A DNA stretch of 44,534 nt from Vectrevirus LI10P3: the sequence record OZ035807.1; one strand, given 5' to 3'. The position numbers and the translations under genes were made by a program. How positions within the stretch are numbered: the stretch's first letter is position 1; the number at the start of each line of letters is the position of its first letter. Under the pieces are notes generated by a model. It had not been told where the DNA came from and searched no databases. It saw nothing but the letters and a program-made list of their open reading frames with translations. Positions 1-44,534 of the stretch are shown here, piece after piece.

Positions 1-29
1 TGTAAAATACAAAGCTAGGAGAGATAAGC

Positions 30-329
30 GTGAGCGTACACAATAAACATGCAGCTACAGAGGATGAGGTTGGCATTCTGCATGGTGCTATTACCAAAAT
101 CTTCAATAAGAAAGCACAGGCAATACTGGACACTATAGAAGAAGACCCTGATGCAGCATTACATTTAGTGTCTGGTAAGGATATTGGTGCGATGTGTAAG
201 TGGGTTCTTGATAACGGCATTACCGCCACACCTGCTGCACAGCAGGAAGAGTCCAAGTTATCTAAGCGCCTCAAGGCTATCCGAGAGGCATCCAGTGGCA
301 AGATTATTCAGTTTACAAAAGAGGAGTGA
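30..329 (+). CDS. putative terminase small subunit (T7 gp18 position)
   Basis: 99-aa ORF with GTG start and AGGAGAG RBS about 6 nt upstream; lies immediately upstream of the HNH and large terminase genes. Call is by synteny only, no motif recognised. Confidence 0.45.
   Translation: MSVHNKHAATEDEVGILHGAITKIFNKKAQAILDTIEEDPDAALHLVSGKDIGAMCKWVLDNGITATPAAQQEESKLSKRLKAIREASSGKIIQFTKEE
122..144 (+). promoter_or_regulatory. phage RNAP promoter-like sequence inside small terminase gene
   Basis: ACTGGACACTATAGAAGAAG matches the core of the repeated promoter consensus; upstream ATTTAC part is not conserved (GCAATA). Confidence 0.35.
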
Positions 330-330
330 T

Positions 331-774
331 ATGCATAGATGGTGTGAATCTCAAGGTTATACCATCTTACCTTCTGGTGTCATCCTTTCAAAGGGTGGCA
401 CCCCTCTCAAACCATTCAAGGCGGGTAGGGGTTATTTAGCAGTTAAAATTAAAAATAAAGAAGGTAAATGGCGTAATGTCTATGTTCATCAATTAGTGGC
501 TTATAAGTATTTACCTAAAACTAATAATGAAGTAAACCACAAAGACGGCGATAAGCACAACAATGATGTTAGCAACTTGGAGTGGGTAACAAGAAGCGAG
601 AATAACTATTTAAAATGCAATGGAAATGATAGGAGTGCCTTAAATAGCTATTTAGCAAGATTAAAAGATTGCTTCTTGCAAGGTAAGGGTGTAGCAGAAA
701 CCGCTAGACTTACTGGTAAAAGTGAACCAAGAGTTTCTTCTCTCTTTAAGGAGTGGCGAAATGGCAAAGGCTAG
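331..774 (+). CDS. HNH homing endonuclease
   Basis: ATG at 331 with GAGGAG RBS 4 nt upstream; motif NHKDGDKHNNDVSNLEWVTRSENN is a typical HNH signature; sits between small and large terminase genes and overlaps both. Confidence 0.7.
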   Translation: MHRWCESQGYTILPSGVILSKGGTPLKPFKAGRGYLAVKIKNKEGKWRNVYVHQLVAYKYLPKTNNEVNHKDGDKHNNDVSNLEWVTRSENNYLKCNGNDRSALNSYLARLKDCFLQGKGVAETARLTGKSEPRVSSLFKEWRNGKG

Positions 775-2659
775 AGAATCACAGGCAGAGGCATTAAAGC
801 GGTGGGAAAACCTTAAAGAACTACAAGACACTTTTAAATATACAGCGGAAGGTTTGCTTCTCTTTGCAGATACAGTTATTCATAACTTAATTGCAGGCAA
901 CCCTCATCTGATTCGTATGCAGGCGGATATCTTGAAGTTCCTATTTTACGGACACAAGTACCGCCTCATCGAAGCGCCTCGTGGTATCGCTAAGACAACA
1001 CTATCAGCAATCTATACGGTATTCCGTATTATTCATGAACCGCATAAGCGTATCATGGTTGTGTCCCAAAACGCCAAGCGAGCAGAGGAAATCGCAGGTT
1101 GGGTAGTTAAAATCTTCCGTGGCTTAGACTTTCTTGAGTTTATGCTGCCGGATATCTACGCTGGGGACCGTGCATCAGTTAAGGCGTTTGAGATTCATTA
1201 CACCCTACGTGGTAGTGATAAGTCTCCTTCTGTATCCTGTTACTCAATCGAAGCAGGTATGCAGGGTGCTCGTGCTGATATTATTCTAGCGGATGACGTA
1301 GAGTCGATGCAGAATGCTCGTACGGCAGCGGGCCGTGCCTTGCTTGAGGAGCTGACTAAGGAGTTTGAATCTATCAACCAGTTTGGGGATATCATTTACC
1401 TTGGTACACCTCAGAACGTAAACTCTATCTACAACAACCTACCTGCTCGTGGTTACTCTGTTCGTATCTGGACTGCGCGTTACCCTTCAGTAGAGCAAGA
1501 GCAATGTTATGGCGACTTCCTTGCACCTATGATTGTGCAAGATATGAAGGACAACCCAGCACTTCGCTCAGGGTACGGGTTGGATGGTAATAGTGGTGCA
1601 CCTTGTGCCCCTGAAATGTATGATGATGAAGTCCTGATTGAGAAGGAAATCTCTCAGGGTGCTGCTAAGTTCCAGCTTCAGTTCATGCTTAACACTCGCA
1701 TGATGGATGCTGACAGATACCCATTACGCCTGAACAATCTAATCTTCACCTCGTTTGGTACAGAGGAAGTCCCTGTGATGCCTACGTGGAGTAATGATTC
1801 CATAAACATCATTGGTGATGCACCTAAGTATGGTAACAAGCCTACGGATTTCATGTACAGACCTGTAGCTCGCCCATACGAATGGGGTGCTGTCTCCCGC
1901 AAGATTATGTATATTGACCCTGCGGGTGGTGGTAAGAACGGAGACGAGACGGGTGTAGCCATCGTATTCCTGCACGGCACATTCATTTATGTGTATCAGT
2001 GCTTTGGTGTACCTGGCGGATACCGAGAGTCGTCCCTGAATCGCATTGTGCAGGCCGCAAAGCAGGCGGGTGTTAAAGAGGTATTCATTGAGAAGAACTT
2101 TGGTCATGGCGCGTTTGAGGCGGTAATTAAGCCGTACTTTGAACGAGAGTGGCCTGTAACTCTGGAAGAGGATTACGCCACCGGACAGAAAGAGTTGCGT
2201 ATCATTGAGACGCTGGAGCCGCTCATGGCAGCACATAGGCTTATCTTCAATGCAGAGATGGTGAAGTCAGACTTTGAGTCGGTACAGCACTATCCGCTTG
2301 AACTACGCATGTCCTACAGTCTTTTCAATCAAATGTCGAACATAACGATTGAGAAGAACAGCCTCCGGCACGATGACCGCCTAGACGCCCTGTATGGCGC
2401 TATACGGCAATTAACTTCTCAGATAGACTATGACGAGGTTACACGGATTAATCGCCTCAGAGCGCAGGAGATGCGCGATTACATCCATGCTATGAATACA
2501 CCTCATCTACGCAGGGCAATGCTATATGGAGATTACGGTACTGAGCGAAGAGTGACCAACACTTCCGTAGCGATGCAGCAGCGAGTTTACGGGCAGAACT
2601 ACCGAAATAAATCGGCAAGCAGAAATACACTTTCTGCAAGGATTTCAAGGACTTATTAA
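761..2659 (+). CDS. terminase large subunit (T7 gp19-like)
   Basis: 632 aa from ATG 761 with AAGGAG RBS; Walker-A-like EAPRGIAKTT near N-terminus; size and position conserved. Confidence 0.85.
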   Translation: MAKARESQAEALKRWENLKELQDTFKYTAEGLLLFADTVIHNLIAGNPHLIRMQADILKFLFYGHKYRLIEAPRGIAKTTLSAIYTVFRIIHEPHKRIMVVSQNAKRAEEIAGWVVKIFRGLDFLEFMLPDIYAGDRASVKAFEIHYTLRGSDKSPSVSCYSIEAGMQGARADIILADDVESMQNARTAAGRALLEELTKEFESINQFGDIIYLGTPQNVNSIYNNLPARGYSVRIWTARYPSVEQEQCYGDFLAPMIVQDMKDNPALRSGYGLDGNSGAPCAPEMYDDEVLIEKEISQGAAKFQLQFMLNTRMMDADRYPLRLNNLIFTSFGTEEVPVMPTWSNDSINIIGDAPKYGNKPTDFMYRPVARPYEWGAVSRKIMYIDPAGGGKNGDETGVAIVFLHGTFIYVYQCFGVPGGYRESSLNRIVQAAKQAGVKEVFIEKNFGHGAFEAVIKPYFEREWPVTLEEDYATGQKELRIIETLEPLMAAHRLIFNAEMVKSDFESVQHYPLELRMSYSLFNQMSNITIEKNSLRHDDRLDALYGAIRQLTSQIDYDEVTRINRLRAQEMRDYIHAMNTPHLRRAMLYGDYGTERRVTNTSVAMQQRVYGQNYRNKSASRNTLSARISRTY

Positions 2660-2816: not shown

Positions 2817-3095
2817 ATGGCTAATGATTATAGTAGTCAACCATTAACAGGTAAGTCTAAGAGAAAGCAGGTACAACCTGTAAGTGAAGAACTAATGCTT
2901 CCGGTAATCAAAAAAGAGGAAGCTAGTAAGAAAAGCAATGTCATTAATGATGCCACCAAATCAGGTAAACAGAAAGGGGCCATGGTGTGCCTTGAAGTGG
3001 AAGGTGGTATATTGAAGATTGCTATCGCGGTTGATGGCAAAGAAGATTCAGAGTGGAAGTTAGTAACAGTGGAACCAGCTGTTAACCCAGTTTAA
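2817..3095 (+). CDS. hypothetical protein, paralog A
   Basis: ATG 2817 with AGGAGAGAG RBS; shares the block SGKQKGAMVxLE...L(K/H)IA(I/V)A with the next ORF. Confidence 0.6.
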   Translation: MANDYSSQPLTGKSKRKQVQPVSEELMLPVIKKEEASKKSNVINDATKSGKQKGAMVCLEVEGGILKIAIAVDGKEDSEWKLVTVEPAVNPV

Positions 3096-3113: not shown

Positions 3114-3401
3114 ATGGCTAAATATGGTACTACAGGTTCTGTTACTGGTCAGGCTTTTCGAGTAAAAGCAGTACAAACTATTGCAACGGCAATCCCGATG
3201 CCTGTTGTTAAAGAAGCAGACCTTAATAGTAAAGATCACCCTATCAACATCAAACATTTATCAGGTAAACAGAAAGGTGCAATGGTTGCTCTTGAGAAAA
3301 GTGACACAACCTTACATATTGCTGTTGCACGTGGTAGTGAACCAACAGACCCTTGGGATTTAACTGGCATGGAATCGCTCGCTGTCACTCCAGCAGGTTG
3401 A
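3114..3401 (+). CDS. hypothetical protein, paralog B
   Basis: ATG 3114 with TAAGGAGGAAG RBS; clear sequence similarity to 2817..3095 (LSGKQKGAMVALE). Confidence 0.6.
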   Translation: MAKYGTTGSVTGQAFRVKAVQTIATAIPMPVVKEADLNSKDHPINIKHLSGKQKGAMVALEKSDTTLHIAVARGSEPTDPWDLTGMESLAVTPAG

Positions 3402-3406
3402 GAATA

Positions 3407-3751
3407 ATGCTTAACAAATACTTCAAGCGCCGTGAGTTCGCTTGCCGATGTGGGTGCGGTACATCCACTGTTGATGCTGAGTTATTACAGGTAGTCACAG
3501 ATGTGCGTGAGCACTTTGGTGTTCCTGTGGTTATTACTTCTGGTCATCGCTGTGCTAAGCACAATGCTAATGTAGGAGGAGCTAAGAACTCCATGCATCT
3601 TACTGGTAAGGCTGCTGACATTAAGGCACGAGGCATCTTACCATCTGAAGTGCATAAGTATCTTACTGATAAGTACCAAGGCAAATATGGGATTGGTAAG
3701 TACAACTCCTTCACCCACATTGATGTACGGGATGGGTGTGCACGATGGTAG
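3407..3751 (+). CDS. endolysin, zinc peptidase M15 family
   Basis: 114 aa; motif SGHRCAKHNANVGGAKNSMHLTGKAADI ... FTHIDVR is the His/Asp/His zinc-ligand pattern of small M15 peptidases. Confidence 0.75.
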   Translation: MLNKYFKRREFACRCGCGTSTVDAELLQVVTDVREHFGVPVVITSGHRCAKHNANVGGAKNSMHLTGKAADIKARGILPSEVHKYLTDKYQGKYGIGKYNSFTHIDVRDGCARW

Positions 3752-3859
3752 GTTGTGTTGCATGGTGTGAACGCATGGTTGCTAAGGCTTCAGAGGAAGG
3801 CAACTATGAAGATTGGCAGAACTACTCAACTTTATTAGCTCAATGGAAAGGGAGATGCA

Positions 3860-4009
3860 ATGAAAAAGCTGTTCAAATCTAAGAAGGTTGTAGGTGCACT
3901 AGTTGCATTGGCAATTGCTCTTGTTTCTGTAGGTCTTGGTGTAGACCTTGGCTCTGGCACGGAATCCTCTGTGACAGACGTGGTCTGCCAAGTGATCACC
4001 TGTGAATAA
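3860..4009 (+). CDS. small secreted/membrane protein (lysis cassette)
   Basis: 49-aa ORF MKKLFKSKKVVGALVALAIALVSVG... with signal-peptide-like N-terminus; GGGAGA RBS; below ORF-track size cutoff. Confidence 0.4.
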   Translation: MKKLFKSKKVVGALVALAIALVSVGLGVDLGSGTESSVTDVVCQVITCE

Positions 4010-4223
4010 GTTTCTAGAAGTGCTGGCAGGTCTTATTGGCCTGCTTGTCTCTGCTAAGAAGAAACAAGAAGAGAAGGAGGCACAAAGTGAAGCGAATCAT
4101 GTTAGTGACAATCCTGCTGATTGGTTCGCTGACCACTTCCGGGTGTCAGCAGGCGTTACCAGAGAAAGCAATGGTGAAACCCCTGAGGCCGACGCTGACG
4201 GAAGTTTACGAGGTAGACGATAA
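4002..4223 (+). CDS. possible i-spanin-like membrane protein
   Basis: 73 aa, N-terminal hydrophobic segment then charged region; GTG start without clear RBS; contains the lipoprotein ORF in +1 frame. Confidence 0.3.
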   Translation: MNKFLEVLAGLIGLLVSAKKKQEEKEAQSEANHVSDNPADWFADHFRVSAGVTRESNGETPEADADGSLRGRR

Positions 4224-4296
4224 GGTCTGCTTTAGTAAGCCTGACGCTACAAAATTAGGTTTGTATATTCTTTCGCTAGAACGCGGATATAATTAA
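4099..4296 (+). CDS. putative o-spanin (outer-membrane lipoprotein)
   Basis: 65 aa from internal ATG; hydrophobic signal followed by LTTSGC lipobox-like motif and Pro-rich segment; embedded in / overlapping the 4002 ORF, the usual spanin arrangement. Confidence 0.45.
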   Translation: MLVTILLIGSLTTSGCQQALPEKAMVKPLRPTLTEVYEVDDKVCFSKPDATKLGLYILSLERGYN

Positions 4297-4325
4297 TACA
4301 TAGCTTTATGTATCAGTGTCTTACG

Positions 4326-4349
4326 ATTTACTGGACACTATAGAAGAGG
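4326..4349 (+). promoter_or_regulatory. phage RNAP promoter
   Basis: TTTACTGGACACTATAGAAGAG upstream of tailspike 1. Confidence 0.7.
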
Positions 4350-4427
4350 TAAGATAGCGCCGTTCTTTTGAGCGGCCTATTACTAGCCAATCTTCATAGG
4401 GAGGGTTGGAAAGTAATAGGAGATAGC

Positions 4428-6326
4428 ATGGCTAAATTAACCAAACCTAATACTGAAGGAATCTTGCATAAAGGACAATCTTTGTATGAGTACCTTGATG
4501 CGAGAGTTTTAACATCAAAGCCGTTTGGTGCTGTAGGTGACGCCACTACTGATGATACGGAGGTTATAGCTGCTTCATTAAACTCTCAGAAAGCTGTCAC
4601 AATCTCAGACGGTGTATTCTCTAGCTCTGGTATTAATAGTAATTACTGTAACTTAGACGGTAGAGGTAGTGGGGTGCTAAGTCACCGTTCCAGTACAGGT
4701 AATTACTTAGTATTTAACAATCCACGTACAGGTCGCTTAAGTAATATTACGGTAGAAAGTAATAAGGCGACTGATACAACTCAGGGACAGCAGGTATCTC
4801 TTGCCGGTGGAAGTGATGTTACTGTAAGTGACGTTAACTTCTCAAACGTTAAAGGTACTGGTTTCAGTTTAATCGCATACCCTAATGATGCGCCACCTGA
4901 TGGACTTATGATTAAAGGTATTCGAGGTAGCTATTCAGGCTATGCTACTAATAAGGCAGCTGGATGCGTACTTGCTGACTCCTCAGTTAACTCCCTCATA
5001 GATAACGTCATTGCTAAGAACTACCCTCAGTTCGGAGCAGTAGAGTTGAAAGGTACAGCCAGTTACAACATAGTCAGTAATGTTATAGGGACAGATTGCC
5101 AGCATGTAACTTACAACGGCACTGAAGGGCCAATAGCTCCTTCTAATAACCTTATCAAGGGGGTGATGGCTAATAACCCTAAGTATGCAGCGGTTGTTGC
5201 AGGCAAAGGAAGTACGAACTTAATCTCAGACGTGCTAGTAGATTACTCAACTTCTGATGCTAGGCAGGCTCATGGTGTTACCGTAGAAGGGTCTGATAAC
5301 GTCATAAATAATGTGCTTATGTCAGGATGTGATGGTACTAACTCTTTAGGACAAGGGCAGACTGCTACAATTGCACGCTTTATAGGTACAGCTAATAACA
5401 ACTATGCGTCTGTATTCCCTAGCTACAGTGCTACAGGTGTTATTACTTTCGAATCCGGCTCTACCCGTAACTTCGTAGAGGTAAAGCACCCTGGCAGGAG
5501 AAACGACCTTCTCAGTTCTGCTAGTACTATTGACGGTGCAGCTACTATTGACGGCACTAATAATAGTAACGTAGTGCACGCACCTGCCTTAGGGCAGTAC
5601 ATAGGTAGTATGTCAGGTAGGTTCGAATGGCGGATTAAGTCCATGTCACTCCCTTCAGGCGTTCTTACTTCTGCTGATAAGTACAGAATGCTTGGGGATG
5701 GTGCTGTATCATTAGCTGTAGGTGGTGGTACTTCTTCTCAAGTTCGCCTATTTACTTCTGATGGTACTTCTCGGACAGTGGCCCTCACCAACGGTAACGT
5801 GCGTCTTTCTACCAGTAGCACAGGCTATTTGCAGTTAGGTGCTGATGCAATGACCCCAGATAGTACTGGTACATACGCATTAGGTTCCGCCAGTCGAGCA
5901 TGGTCTGGCGGTTTTACTCAAGCAGCATTCACTGTTACCTCAGATGCTCGGTGTAAAACAGAACCTCTTACTATCTCAGATGCCTTACTGGATGCTTGGT
6001 CTGAAGTTGACTTTGTGCAGTTTCAGTATTTGGATCGTGTTGAGGAGAAGGGTGCAGACTCAGCTAGATGGCACTTCGGTATCATCGCTCAGCGAGCTAA
6101 GGAGGCTTTCGAACGTCACGGTATAGATGCACATCGCTATGGCTTCTTGTGCTTCGACAGTTGGGATGATGTATACGAGGAAGATGCCAATGGCTCTCGT
6201 AAACTGATTACACCAGCAGGTTCCCGCTACGGTATTCGTTACGAGGAAGTACTGATATTAGAGGCTGCGTTGATGCGGAGGACTATCAAGCGTATGCAGG
6301 AAGCACTAGCTTCCCTGCCTAAGTGA
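4428..6326 (+). CDS. tailspike 1: beta-helix depolymerase with C-terminal intramolecular chaperone (peptidase S74-like) domain
   Basis: ATG 4428 with GGAGA RBS; N-terminal FGAVGDATTDDTEVIAA is the pectate-lyase-fold signature; C-terminus has SDARCK followed by LDAWSEVDF...WHFGIIAQRAKEAF, as in endosialidase / tail-fibre chaperone domains. Confidence 0.8.
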   Translation: MAKLTKPNTEGILHKGQSLYEYLDARVLTSKPFGAVGDATTDDTEVIAASLNSQKAVTISDGVFSSSGINSNYCNLDGRGSGVLSHRSSTGNYLVFNNPRTGRLSNITVESNKATDTTQGQQVSLAGGSDVTVSDVNFSNVKGTGFSLIAYPNDAPPDGLMIKGIRGSYSGYATNKAAGCVLADSSVNSLIDNVIAKNYPQFGAVELKGTASYNIVSNVIGTDCQHVTYNGTEGPIAPSNNLIKGVMANNPKYAAVVAGKGSTNLISDVLVDYSTSDARQAHGVTVEGSDNVINNVLMSGCDGTNSLGQGQTATIARFIGTANNNYASVFPSYSATGVITFESGSTRNFVEVKHPGRRNDLLSSASTIDGAATIDGTNNSNVVHAPALGQYIGSMSGRFEWRIKSMSLPSGVLTSADKYRMLGDGAVSLAVGGGTSSQVRLFTSDGTSRTVALTNGNVRLSTSSTGYLQLGADAMTPDSTGTYALGSASRAWSGGFTQAAFTVTSDARCKTEPLTISDALLDAWSEVDFVQFQYLDRVEEKGADSARWHFGIIAQRAKEAFERHGIDAHRYGFLCFDSWDDVYEEDANGSRKLITPAGSRYGIRYEEVLILEAALMRRTIKRMQEALASLPK

Positions 6327-44385: not shown

Positions 44386-44534
44386 ATGATTAACTCCGAA
44401 CTGGTAGATAGTGGTGTGAAGCTTGCGCCACCTGCATTAGTCTCAGGTGGGTACTTCCTCGGTATCAGTTGGAATGATTGGGTTCTTATAGCTACATTCA
44501 TTTATACTGTATTACAAATTGGCGATTGGTTTTA
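44386..44534 (+). CDS. class II holin (T7 gp17.5-like), truncated by window end
   Basis: RBS TAAGGAGG; ...GISWNDWVLIATFIYTVLQIGDWF resembles the T7 holin transmembrane segment; reading frame continues into positions 1-46 if the sequence is circularised. Confidence 0.55.
   Translation, partial: MINSELVDSGVKLAPPALVSGGYFLGISWNDWVLIATFIYTVLQIGDWF

Follow-up and report, generated by a model that had tools for sequence, protein, structure and literature searches.

The lysis cassette of Vectrevirus LI10P3 ends in a run of very small, overlapping genes, and the question it raises is which small membrane protein would be the inner-membrane half of a spanin. We analysed the complete 44,534-nucleotide (nt) stretch held in sequence record OZ035807.1 (hereafter the window, to whose positions all coordinates refer unless another record is named), concentrating on positions 3407–4296. 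A preliminary description of this region, made from the letters alone, had listed an M15 endolysin followed by three open reading frames (ORFs) in three different frames, for a 49-amino-acid (aa) signal-peptide-like protein, a 73-aa membrane protein and a lipoprotein. It proposed that these were either a compact overlapped spanin pair, or that the first two ORFs were a single inner-membrane spanin (i-spanin) gene joined by a frameshift. Our preferred reading, which we hold with a probability of about 0.55, is that the 73-aa protein (inner membrane) and the lipoprotein (outer membrane; the candidate outer-membrane spanin, or o-spanin) form a minimal two-component spanin that acts after a T7-type holin and the M15 endolysin.

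The cassette is an ordinary, conserved late lysis cassette of SP6/K1-5-like podophages. Positions 3407–4296 share 97% identity with Escherichia phages of the genus Vectrevirus (K1-5-like; Autographiviridae, Molineuxvirinae), and at least 88 phage records match this region, 82 of these 88 with a query coverage of at least 80%. Annotated relatives have the gene order of the window (large terminase, two small paralogous genes, endolysin, small genes, tailspike); the arrangement has already been catalogued, and the window adds one more member of a known cassette. The four ORFs described earlier all exist, the lipoprotein frame stopping at 4296, 73 nt beyond the stop of the 73-aa gene, and a fifth joins them, so that the cassette comprises the M15 endolysin, a Cys-rich ORF, and the 49-aa, 73-aa and lipoprotein genes. 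These five genes are real, conserved and translationally linked. For the 49-aa, 73-aa and lipoprotein ORFs, the PHROG profile matches span the whole ORF. The ORFs are intact in 22 of 22 IMG/VR relatives (lipoprotein identity 63–100%) and in some 10 more distant phage records that were examined.

The overlapping 73-aa and lipoprotein genes

The 73-aa protein is encoded from a GTG start at 4002..4223 (+ strand), at the position of an i-spanin gene, and belongs to phrog_9219 (‘unknown function’). In each of the 14 overlapping loci checked, which comprise SP6-like podophages and unrelated metagenomic phages (locus labels including L026–L030, L033, L035, L037, L039, L041, L043, L044 and L046), a gene of this family and the gene of a homologous lipoprotein overlap in the +1 frame. 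Thirteen overlapping contexts lie outside the close Vectrevirus set; the named ones are Proteus Pm5460, Klebsiella H01, Pantoea Nufs112, Vibrio JSF38, Edwardsiella WAG25P1 and Ralstonia Reminis, and the metagenomic ones are L033/34, L035, L037, L039/40, L041, L043 and L044. The lipoproteins of these contexts share the pattern P-x-[KR]-P-x-[LIV]...G-x-C-[FML]-x3-D-A-x2-L-G-x-Y-I-x2-L-E-R-x-Y (alignment A3), with an invariant lipobox Cys. The same lipoprotein frame is present in L031 and L036, where it runs past the contig end, and Aeromonas Aer_P220 has the same gene order by annotation. The adjoining endolysins fall into four types that are unrelated to one another (M15, GH108, lysozyme and transglycosylase), and the phages that carry the pair include lambdoid-like and myovirus-like genomes.

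The two genes are also found apart. The temperate Vibrio phage X29 (L045, NC_024369.2) carries the family gene at 988..1164 and the lipoprotein gene at 1717..1923 of its own record, with a gene for a 158-aa protein on the opposite strand between them; its family protein is 58 aa long, has no tail and has AF replacing WF, and the signal peptide of its lipoprotein lacks the Gly that is described below as a codon shadow. A tblastn search with a distant lipoprotein query retrieves essentially the same ∼160 phages as one with a 73-aa query. The linkage of both families across loci indicates a mobile module with overlapped and separated architectures, as in Rz/Rz1 pairs. As a gene architecture, then, the compact overlapped pair of the preliminary description is supported by a +1 overlap that is conserved beside endolysins in many unrelated phages, and the 73-aa gene has the setting of an i-spanin gene, lying in the lysis cassette with an o-spanin gene that starts inside it in the +1 frame or is separate. 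No other candidate with Rz-like architecture was found in these cassettes except for a 90-aa ORF in L044 with a transmembrane domain (TMD) and a coiled coil.

A profile search of 1.8 billion representatives recovered 51 clusters of the 73-aa family at ≤50% identity; word-indexed homologue searches with the 49-aa, 73-aa and lipoprotein sequences returned close SP6-like relatives only. All 47 aligned family members match phrog_9219, and their common pattern is an N-terminal hydrophobic or amphipathic helix, a basic patch, a K-E-Q-x2-A-Q-x-E-A-D helix, the motif [DN]-P-x2-W-F-x2-H-F and a variable polar tail. Two members additionally gave weak, sub-threshold matches to PHROG Rz-like families (E 0.005–0.03). 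Pfam yielded no match for the four small cassette proteins or for the 47 family members. When distant members were searched by tblastn against isolated phages, P0113 had no match and P0083 had one, and the contexts of the distant members were read on metagenome contigs.

The same comparisons bear on the second proposal, that the 49-aa and 73-aa ORFs are one gene, either interrupted by an indel in the sequencing or connected by a programmed frameshift. Only the 8-nt overlap and the missing Shine-Dalgarno sequence before GTG 4002 speak for it. The ORFs are nevertheless separate in every relative examined, that is, in 22 of 22 IMG/VR relatives and in independently sequenced phages, and ATG is the start codon of the second gene in Pantoea Nufs112, Vibrio JSF38, Ralstonia Reminis and metagenomic relatives. 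The reading frames of the two genes are offset by 0 in Nufs112, by 1 in the window and Pm5460, and by 2 in JSF38, Reminis and L041. Furthermore, the family gene follows a quite different upstream gene in many phages, and a fusion would hold two hydrophobic helices, unlike any known i-spanin. Given the varying offsets, the ATG starts and the recurring two-ORF structure, we regard the single-gene proposal as refuted and leave it practically no probability.

That the GTG at 4002 has no ribosome-binding site, as first described, is right: no Shine-Dalgarno sequence precedes it. An extended anti-Shine-Dalgarno match ahead of it (GTGATC, 3992–3997) was considered and rejected, being unconserved. The GTG overlaps the stop codon of the 49-aa gene inside an invariant TGTGA(A/G)TAA junction, whose Cys codon is TGT in 23 of 23 sequences. 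This placement inside a conserved junction and the invariant TGT fit translational coupling to the 49-aa gene.

Substitution patterns define which part of the 73-aa protein is under selection. Where only this gene is read (4010–4086), the minimum numbers of substitutions at codon positions 1, 2 and 3 are 24, 9 and 39, and the pooled ratio of non-synonymous to synonymous substitution rates (dN/dS) of the non-overlapped part is 0.25 in frame, against 1.56 when read in +1. The segment common to the motif DNPADWFADHFRV and the lipoprotein signal peptide varies little at all positions, with the 73-aa frame the more constrained (dN/dS 0.13 versus 0.57 in the lipoprotein frame). Further downstream the order is reversed: where the 73-aa tail overlaps the mature lipoprotein, evolution is neutral in the 73-aa frame (0.96) and dN/dS is 0.51 in the lipoprotein frame, and the non-overlapped end of the lipoprotein gene has a pooled value of 0.10. 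Direct codon reading reveals shadows in both directions: the lipobox Cys (NTG|T) accounts for the V, M or L that follows ‘HFxG’ in the 73-aa family, and the 73-aa Trp codon (TGG-TTY gives GGT) for the conserved Gly in the middle of the signal peptide. Residues 49–73 thus evolve neutrally, and together with the shadows this points to a functional protein of residues 1–48 (a hydrophobic or amphipathic helix, a KKK patch, a charged helix and the motif DNPADWFADHF), with the last 25 residues a by-product of the overlap.

The lipoprotein gene encodes a predicted outer-membrane lipoprotein (o-spanin) of 69 aa at 4087..4296 (+ strand). The preliminary description had placed it at 4099..4296; its frame, its start inside the 73-aa ORF and its end at 4296 hold, and the start codon is very probably GTG 4087 (MKRIMLV...), not ATG 4099, judging from the sequence context. 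A Shine-Dalgarno sequence, AAGGAGG, can be read at 4074..4080 (+ strand) inside the 73-aa gene, six nt upstream of GTG 4087, and is kept in 21 of 23 aligned sequences. GTG 4087 is preferred on account of this conserved element, because the codon is ATG in one relative while the codon at 4099 is ACG in another, and because it supplies the basic n-region that a signal peptide needs. With this start, the overlap with the 73-aa gene amounts to 137 nt.

The signal peptide MKRIMLVTILLIGSLTTSG is followed by the lipobox Cys at 4144–4146 (Cys20). On direct reading, the n-region of MKRIMLVTILLIGSLTTSG|C contains K/R, its h-region is uncharged and T-S-G-C follows, in agreement with a PROSITE PS51257-type rule. 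The mature part of 50 aa contains four Pro. The residue at +2 is Gln (no Asp), which predicts sorting to the outer membrane. The mature protein has a Pro-containing linker, a predicted β-hairpin (VYEVDDKVCF) and a C-terminal amphipathic helix, DATKLGLYILSLERGY; the motif at its end is ...C-F-x3-D-A-x2-L-G-x-Y-I-x2-L-E-R-G-Y. An AlphaFold2 model based on the alignment of close relatives, of low confidence (predicted local distance difference test, pLDDT, 60) and used for secondary structure only, suggests a disordered linker, a β-hairpin (VYEV-DD-KVCF) and a 12-residue amphipathic helix at 54–65. The lipoprotein matches phrog_8971 (‘Rz-like spanin’, E 1.3e-38), carries the UniRef name ‘O-spanin’ and is listed as an o-spanin in SpaninDB, all of which is membership at the level of annotation. 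No hydrophobic segment follows the signal peptide, and the protein lacks the C-terminal TMD of a unimolecular spanin. It resembles T1 gp11, a unimolecular spanin, in being a small outer-membrane lipoprotein with a predicted periplasmic β element, but ends in the 12-residue amphipathic helix where T1 gp11 has a C-terminal TMD.

A proposed minimal two-component spanin and its difficulties

If the 73-aa protein and the lipoprotein are a spanin pair, lysis might proceed as follows. The T7-type holin would permeabilise the inner membrane and the M15 peptidase would then degrade the wall. The lipoprotein would be exported via the lipoprotein pathway, acylated at Cys20 and, with Gln at +2, sorted to the outer membrane, while the N-terminal hydrophobic helix would tether the 73-aa protein to the inner membrane. 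The conserved charged helix and the DNPxDWFxxHF motif of this protein may contact the C-terminal hairpin and helix of the lipoprotein in a pre-assembled complex and, once the wall was destroyed, such complexes would draw the two membranes towards each other and rupture the outer one. Translation of the 73-aa gene would be coupled to that of the 49-aa gene (its GTG lies inside TGTGAATAA), and the lipoprotein gene would be translated from its own strong ribosome-binding site within the 73-aa gene. The 49-aa protein would have an accessory role in the inner membrane, perhaps as a second anchor or as a regulator of the holin-like kind.

Homologues of the pair have been annotated independently as Rz/Rz1 or as i-/o-spanin in UAB_Phi78 (by SpaninDB), KBNP1315 and Nufs112. 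SpaninDB (Kongari et al. 2018, PMC6139136) lists for UAB_Phi78 an ‘overlapped’ pair of a 69-aa i-spanin, the homologue of the 73-aa protein, and a 61-aa o-spanin. The annotation of the distant SP6-like phage KBNP1315 gives a T7-type holin, a signal-arrest-release (SAR) endolysin, Rz and Rz1 at conserved positions, of which only holin and endolysin were tested, and the authors of the Nufs112 genome name the pair inner and outer spanins.

Comparison with lambda Rz/Rz1 and P2 LysB/LysC shows what is shared and what is not. Here as there, the genes close the lysis cassette, the start of the lipoprotein gene falls within the upstream gene in the +1 frame (and, as with P2 LysB/LysC, the lipoprotein gene extends past the upstream one), the product is a small Pro-bearing lipoprotein with an outer-membrane sorting signal, and the upstream gene tolerates mutation where it overlaps the mature lipoprotein. 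In contrast, the upstream protein is 73 aa long here against ∼130–150 aa, has neither coiled coils nor a C-terminal interaction domain after the overlap, combines a marginal TMD with a ‘wrong’ charge bias, and lacks a periplasmic Cys. The 73-aa protein showed no similarity in sequence to the lambda and P2 spanins.

These differences belong to a set of observations that weigh against a spanin role for the pair. The literature search found no experiment on the 49-aa protein, the 73-aa protein, the lipoprotein or any family member. The AlphaFold2 model of the 73-aa protein, calculated from the family alignment, has a single 35-residue helix (residues 2–36, pLDDT 85–92), a short helix at 38–45 and disorder after residue ∼50. 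This is consistent with the earlier remark that a coiled coil is lacking, and the protein has neither the coiled-coil periplasmic domain nor the C-terminal o-spanin-binding end of an i-spanin. Its N-terminal helix would also be a poor anchor. The hydrophobic core spans 15 residues and the longest uncharged run is 12 (median 10 across 52 family members, only two of which reach 18), as compared with uncharged runs of 19–29 in lambda Rz, T7 gp18.5, Era103 Rz and the 49-aa protein, and an N-terminal TMD with N-in/C-out topology would be no more than putative. Uncharged-run lengths were used for this comparison because T7 gp18.5 and the 73-aa protein were not distinguished by crude hydrophobicity sums over 19 residues.

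The helices of the L041, P0113 and JSF38 members resemble amphipathic helices, not TMDs. There are no K/R residues or only one before the family helix and mostly three to five after it, so that the positive-inside rule favours N-out/C-in, the opposite of an i-spanin. Moreover, a functional periplasmic part of ∼30 residues and a mature lipoprotein of 50 residues would be short for spanning the periplasm. Lastly, the 49-aa protein is a candidate i-spanin too, with a predicted topology that is textbook for an i-spanin; Vibrio phage ICP3 has a 47-aa protein and a lipoprotein at the position of T7 Rz/Rz1, with a separate holin and no 73-aa-family gene; and SpaninDB picks the 49-aa protein as the i-spanin of K1-5, K1E and SP6 (PMC6139136).

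The weak anchor also leads to the view that the 73-aa protein is cytoplasmic, or lies on the inner face of the membrane, and does not act directly with the lipoprotein until the holin has triggered, or plays no part in lysis at all, the lipoprotein having another partner or a function such as exclusion. The spaced charges and high hydrophobic moments of the helix in many members would suit such a protein, as would the cytoplasmic C-terminus expected from the positive-inside rule and the PHROG label of ‘unknown function’. Yet both families co-occur strictly in each locus examined, however different the phages, and always next to endolysins; the codons of the conserved 73-aa motif interlock with those of the lipoprotein signal peptide and dominate them; and the lipoprotein gene sits in the lysis cassette rather than in an early or moron position. 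We therefore find this view doubtful and give it only a small share of the probability.

A further view, still unlikely but somewhat easier to entertain, is that phrog_9219 and the lipoprotein with the LERGY motif are a distinct class of outer-membrane-disruption module and not a shrunken Rz/Rz1. The inner part would then be a protein with a short, amphipathic, fusion-peptide-like helix, and not an integral N-in/C-out protein. It could be anchored N-out/C-in, be peripheral, become periplasmic only after holin triggering, or belong to a three-part spanin with the upstream membrane protein. Such a class would explain why both ‘i-spanin’ candidates look too small.

The 49-aa membrane protein as a possible rival or third partner

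The gene upstream, at 3860..4009 (+ strand), has its own GGAG Shine-Dalgarno sequence and encodes a 49-aa type-II membrane protein that matches phrog_4712 (‘holin’). The protein comprises a basic, Lys-rich N-terminus with five Lys ahead of the membrane segment, one strong TMD (residues 10–28, 19 uncharged residues) and an acidic tail of 21 residues with a CxxxxC motif, a layout from which N-in/C-out topology is predicted. The pooled dN/dS of the ORF is 0.18. It carries the label ‘holin’ in RefSeq, ‘i-spanin’ in SpaninDB and ‘putative I-spanin’ in the CPT annotation of phage LL11. We found no basis for the RefSeq/PHROG label, which is doubtful given that a T7-type holin is encoded elsewhere and that the acidic C-terminus is predicted to be periplasmic. 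The role of bystander or holin that the preliminary description had implied for this protein is therefore insecure, although the ORF itself stands.

The main rival explanation makes the 49-aa protein the i-spanin, pairing with the lipoprotein in a ‘separated’ arrangement, and gives the 73-aa protein a different role, for instance that of a lysis regulator in the cytoplasm or at the membrane periphery. We regard this as unlikely, if a serious possibility. The strong TMD, the basic N-terminus and the periplasmic tail with two conserved Cys are what an i-spanin would have, whereas the helix of the 73-aa family is a marginal TMD with charges that predict a cytoplasmic C-terminus. Kongari et al. 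list the protein in this role for K1-5, K1E and SP6 as ‘separated’, with a 77-nt gap and the flag ‘Too small?’ (PMC6139136), and the CPT annotation of LL11 concurs. The SpaninDB entries for SP6, K1-5, K1E and UAB_Phi78 concern the same genes as in the window (for K1-5, the 49-aa protein is 98% and the 69-aa protein ∼97% identical), with no structural difference. On the other side, SpaninDB itself takes the homologue of the 73-aa protein as the i-spanin for UAB_Phi78, so that its choice is internally inconsistent between sister phages, and the pairs are flagged ‘Too small?/Too short’. The 49-aa protein would place merely 21 residues in the periplasm. Proteins of the 49-aa type are also missing from L031, L033, L036, L037, L039, L043, L044 and X29, where a different, holin-like gene, often with two TMDs, lies upstream.

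The comparison with Vibrio phages ICP3 and VP4 (the ‘VP4 family’ of SpaninDB) enters on both sides. SpaninDB lists a 47-aa ‘i-spanin’ for both phages. The 47-aa protein of ICP3 shares with the 49-aa protein a basic N-terminus, a TMD, the sequence GVDL and a CxxxxC tail, and its gene directly precedes the lipoprotein gene, the two lying between terminase genes 18 and 19, as T7 18.5/18.7 do, with a separate 17.5 holin; this look-alike favours the 49-aa protein as i-spanin. Against the hidden Markov model (HMM) of the 49-aa family it scores 27.8 bits, which none of 10,000 shuffles reached (maxima 12.0 in 5,000 full shuffles and 26.9 in 5,000 segment-preserving ones). A direct BLASTP comparison of the 49-aa and 47-aa proteins produced no alignment. 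By the HMM score, the two are probably homologous. The locus nevertheless differs from that of the window, as it has no 73-aa-family gene, and its lipoprotein is unrelated, lacking the LERGY motif and a second Cys, yet the 47-aa and 49-aa tails are alike. The tail thus does not co-vary with the lipoprotein, which argues against the two being partners. The 47-aa gene (5265..5408 of the ICP3 sequence, L025) is unannotated in RefSeq, where the record has a 30-aa orf51 (5267–5359) in a different frame.

All three proteins might instead act together in SP6-like phages, with the 49-aa protein as, for example, a firm anchor, the 73-aa protein as a fusogenic amphipathic helix or adaptor, and the lipoprotein, in one envelope-disrupting complex. 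In SP6-like phages the three genes invariably lie side by side and are linked in translation, with the stop/start overlap in 23 of 23 aligned sequences. A gene for a small membrane protein directly precedes the family gene in every context seen, its stop overlapping or abutting the family start, and neither small protein alone looks sufficient to span the periplasm. A fused form counts in the same direction: the 95-aa metagenome protein P0106 (329..616 of L035) has a strong, holin-like TMD, TVWGALLAITATISQLFGW, ahead of its 73-aa-family domain, and its gene overlaps a homologous lipoprotein gene. P0106 may be a fusion that arose naturally and provides a firm anchor, or it may be an artefact of assembly. 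Against a three-part complex, the upstream partners are non-homologous between phages and some are predicted to have both termini in the cytoplasm, and adjacency and coupling are common among unrelated phage genes. We know of no precedent for a three-part spanin, which we also count against it, and consider such a complex rather improbable.

The two-component spanin of the 73-aa protein and the lipoprotein remains our preferred reading. For this window it is of little importance; the wider points are the annotation and the mechanism of the whole family, which is widespread (the 51 clusters at 50% identity) and in every case goes together with a single lipoprotein family. The 73-aa gene is absent from the RefSeq record of K1-5, and over this stretch the K1E and SP6 records have only ‘holin’ and ‘Rz-like spanin’/gp48. 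Mechanistically, the question for the entire family is which protein anchors the complex and how such small proteins could bridge the periplasm. If functional cores of ∼50 residues suffice to breach the outer membrane, they would be among the smallest spanins and a convenient minimal system for studying spanin-mediated membrane fusion.

Endolysin, holin and neighbouring genes

The cassette opens with the endolysin gene (3407..3751, + strand), which encodes a 114-aa zinc peptidase of the M15_3 type. The protein matches Peptidase_M15_3 (PF08291) with an E-value of 3.3e-32 and 111.3 bits (gathering cut-off 23.2) and PHROG 894 (‘endolysin’) with an E-value of 5e-45. It has no signal sequence and is therefore holin-dependent.

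Between the endolysin and the 49-aa gene lies the fifth gene, which was not in the earlier list. It encodes a small, soluble, Cys-rich protein with a CxxWC motif (3745..3882, + strand; phrog_1312, E 4e-18), of 45 aa from ATG 3745 or 48 aa from GTG 3736, both ending at 3882. The ORF overlaps the stop of the endolysin gene (ATGGTAG) as well as the start of the 49-aa gene. Its pattern is M-V-x-C-x2-W-C...N-Y-x2-L-L-x2-W and its pooled dN/dS is 0.14. Relatives with an intact copy include Reminis, JSF38 and L041, and the ORF occurs in every SP6-like cassette seen, those of Ralstonia, Vibrio and Edwardsiella phages included.

The holin gene is split over the ends of the window. Its 5′ part (codons 1–49 and two bases of codon 50) lies at 44386..44534 and its 3′ part (...YVKYKARRDKRERTQ, then the stop) at 1..46, both on the + strand, and joining the last 149 and the first 46 bases gives a 64-aa product, MINSELVDSG...DWFYVKYKARRDKRERTQ. 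The joined product matches the T7-family holin entry PF10746 (E 4.8e-25, 87.5 bits, cut-off 25.4). It is a clear member of the T7 gp17.5 family, encoded upstream of the terminase genes as in T7 and SP6, although outside the region at 3407–4296. The literature on SP6 and UAB_Phi78 describes a ‘putative holin’, gp39, of 64 aa, upstream of the terminase genes, and the holin of the window corresponds to SP6 gp39. As the window ends cut this gene, the 44.5-kb window is a rotated complete genome, and with a T7-type holin encoded far from the endolysin, the cassette need not supply one.

Scans of 3300–4500 for σ70 promoters and terminators gave no signal above shuffles. Just 3′ of the lipoprotein stop, ahead of a K5-lyase-like tailspike gene (4420–6326), a promoter-like site, ATTTACTGGACACTATAGAAGAG (4326..4348, + strand), is very similar to the SP6/K1-5 phage RNA polymerase promoter consensus.

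An ORF at ∼331..774 (+ strand), between the small terminase (30–329) and large terminase genes, has motifs like those of HNH endonucleases (…NHKDGDKHNN…LEWVTRSEN…) and is probably a homing endonuclease insertion. The large-terminase ORF overlaps it when started at GTG 722, as listed, so that the true start is probably further downstream. Between the large terminase and the endolysin, two tandem paralogous genes of phrog_2725 (2817..3095 and 3114..3401, + strand) encode proteins of 92 and 95 aa. The label ‘acetyl-CoA acetyltransferase’ that these paralogues bear in public records is implausible at that size and is probably a propagated misannotation.

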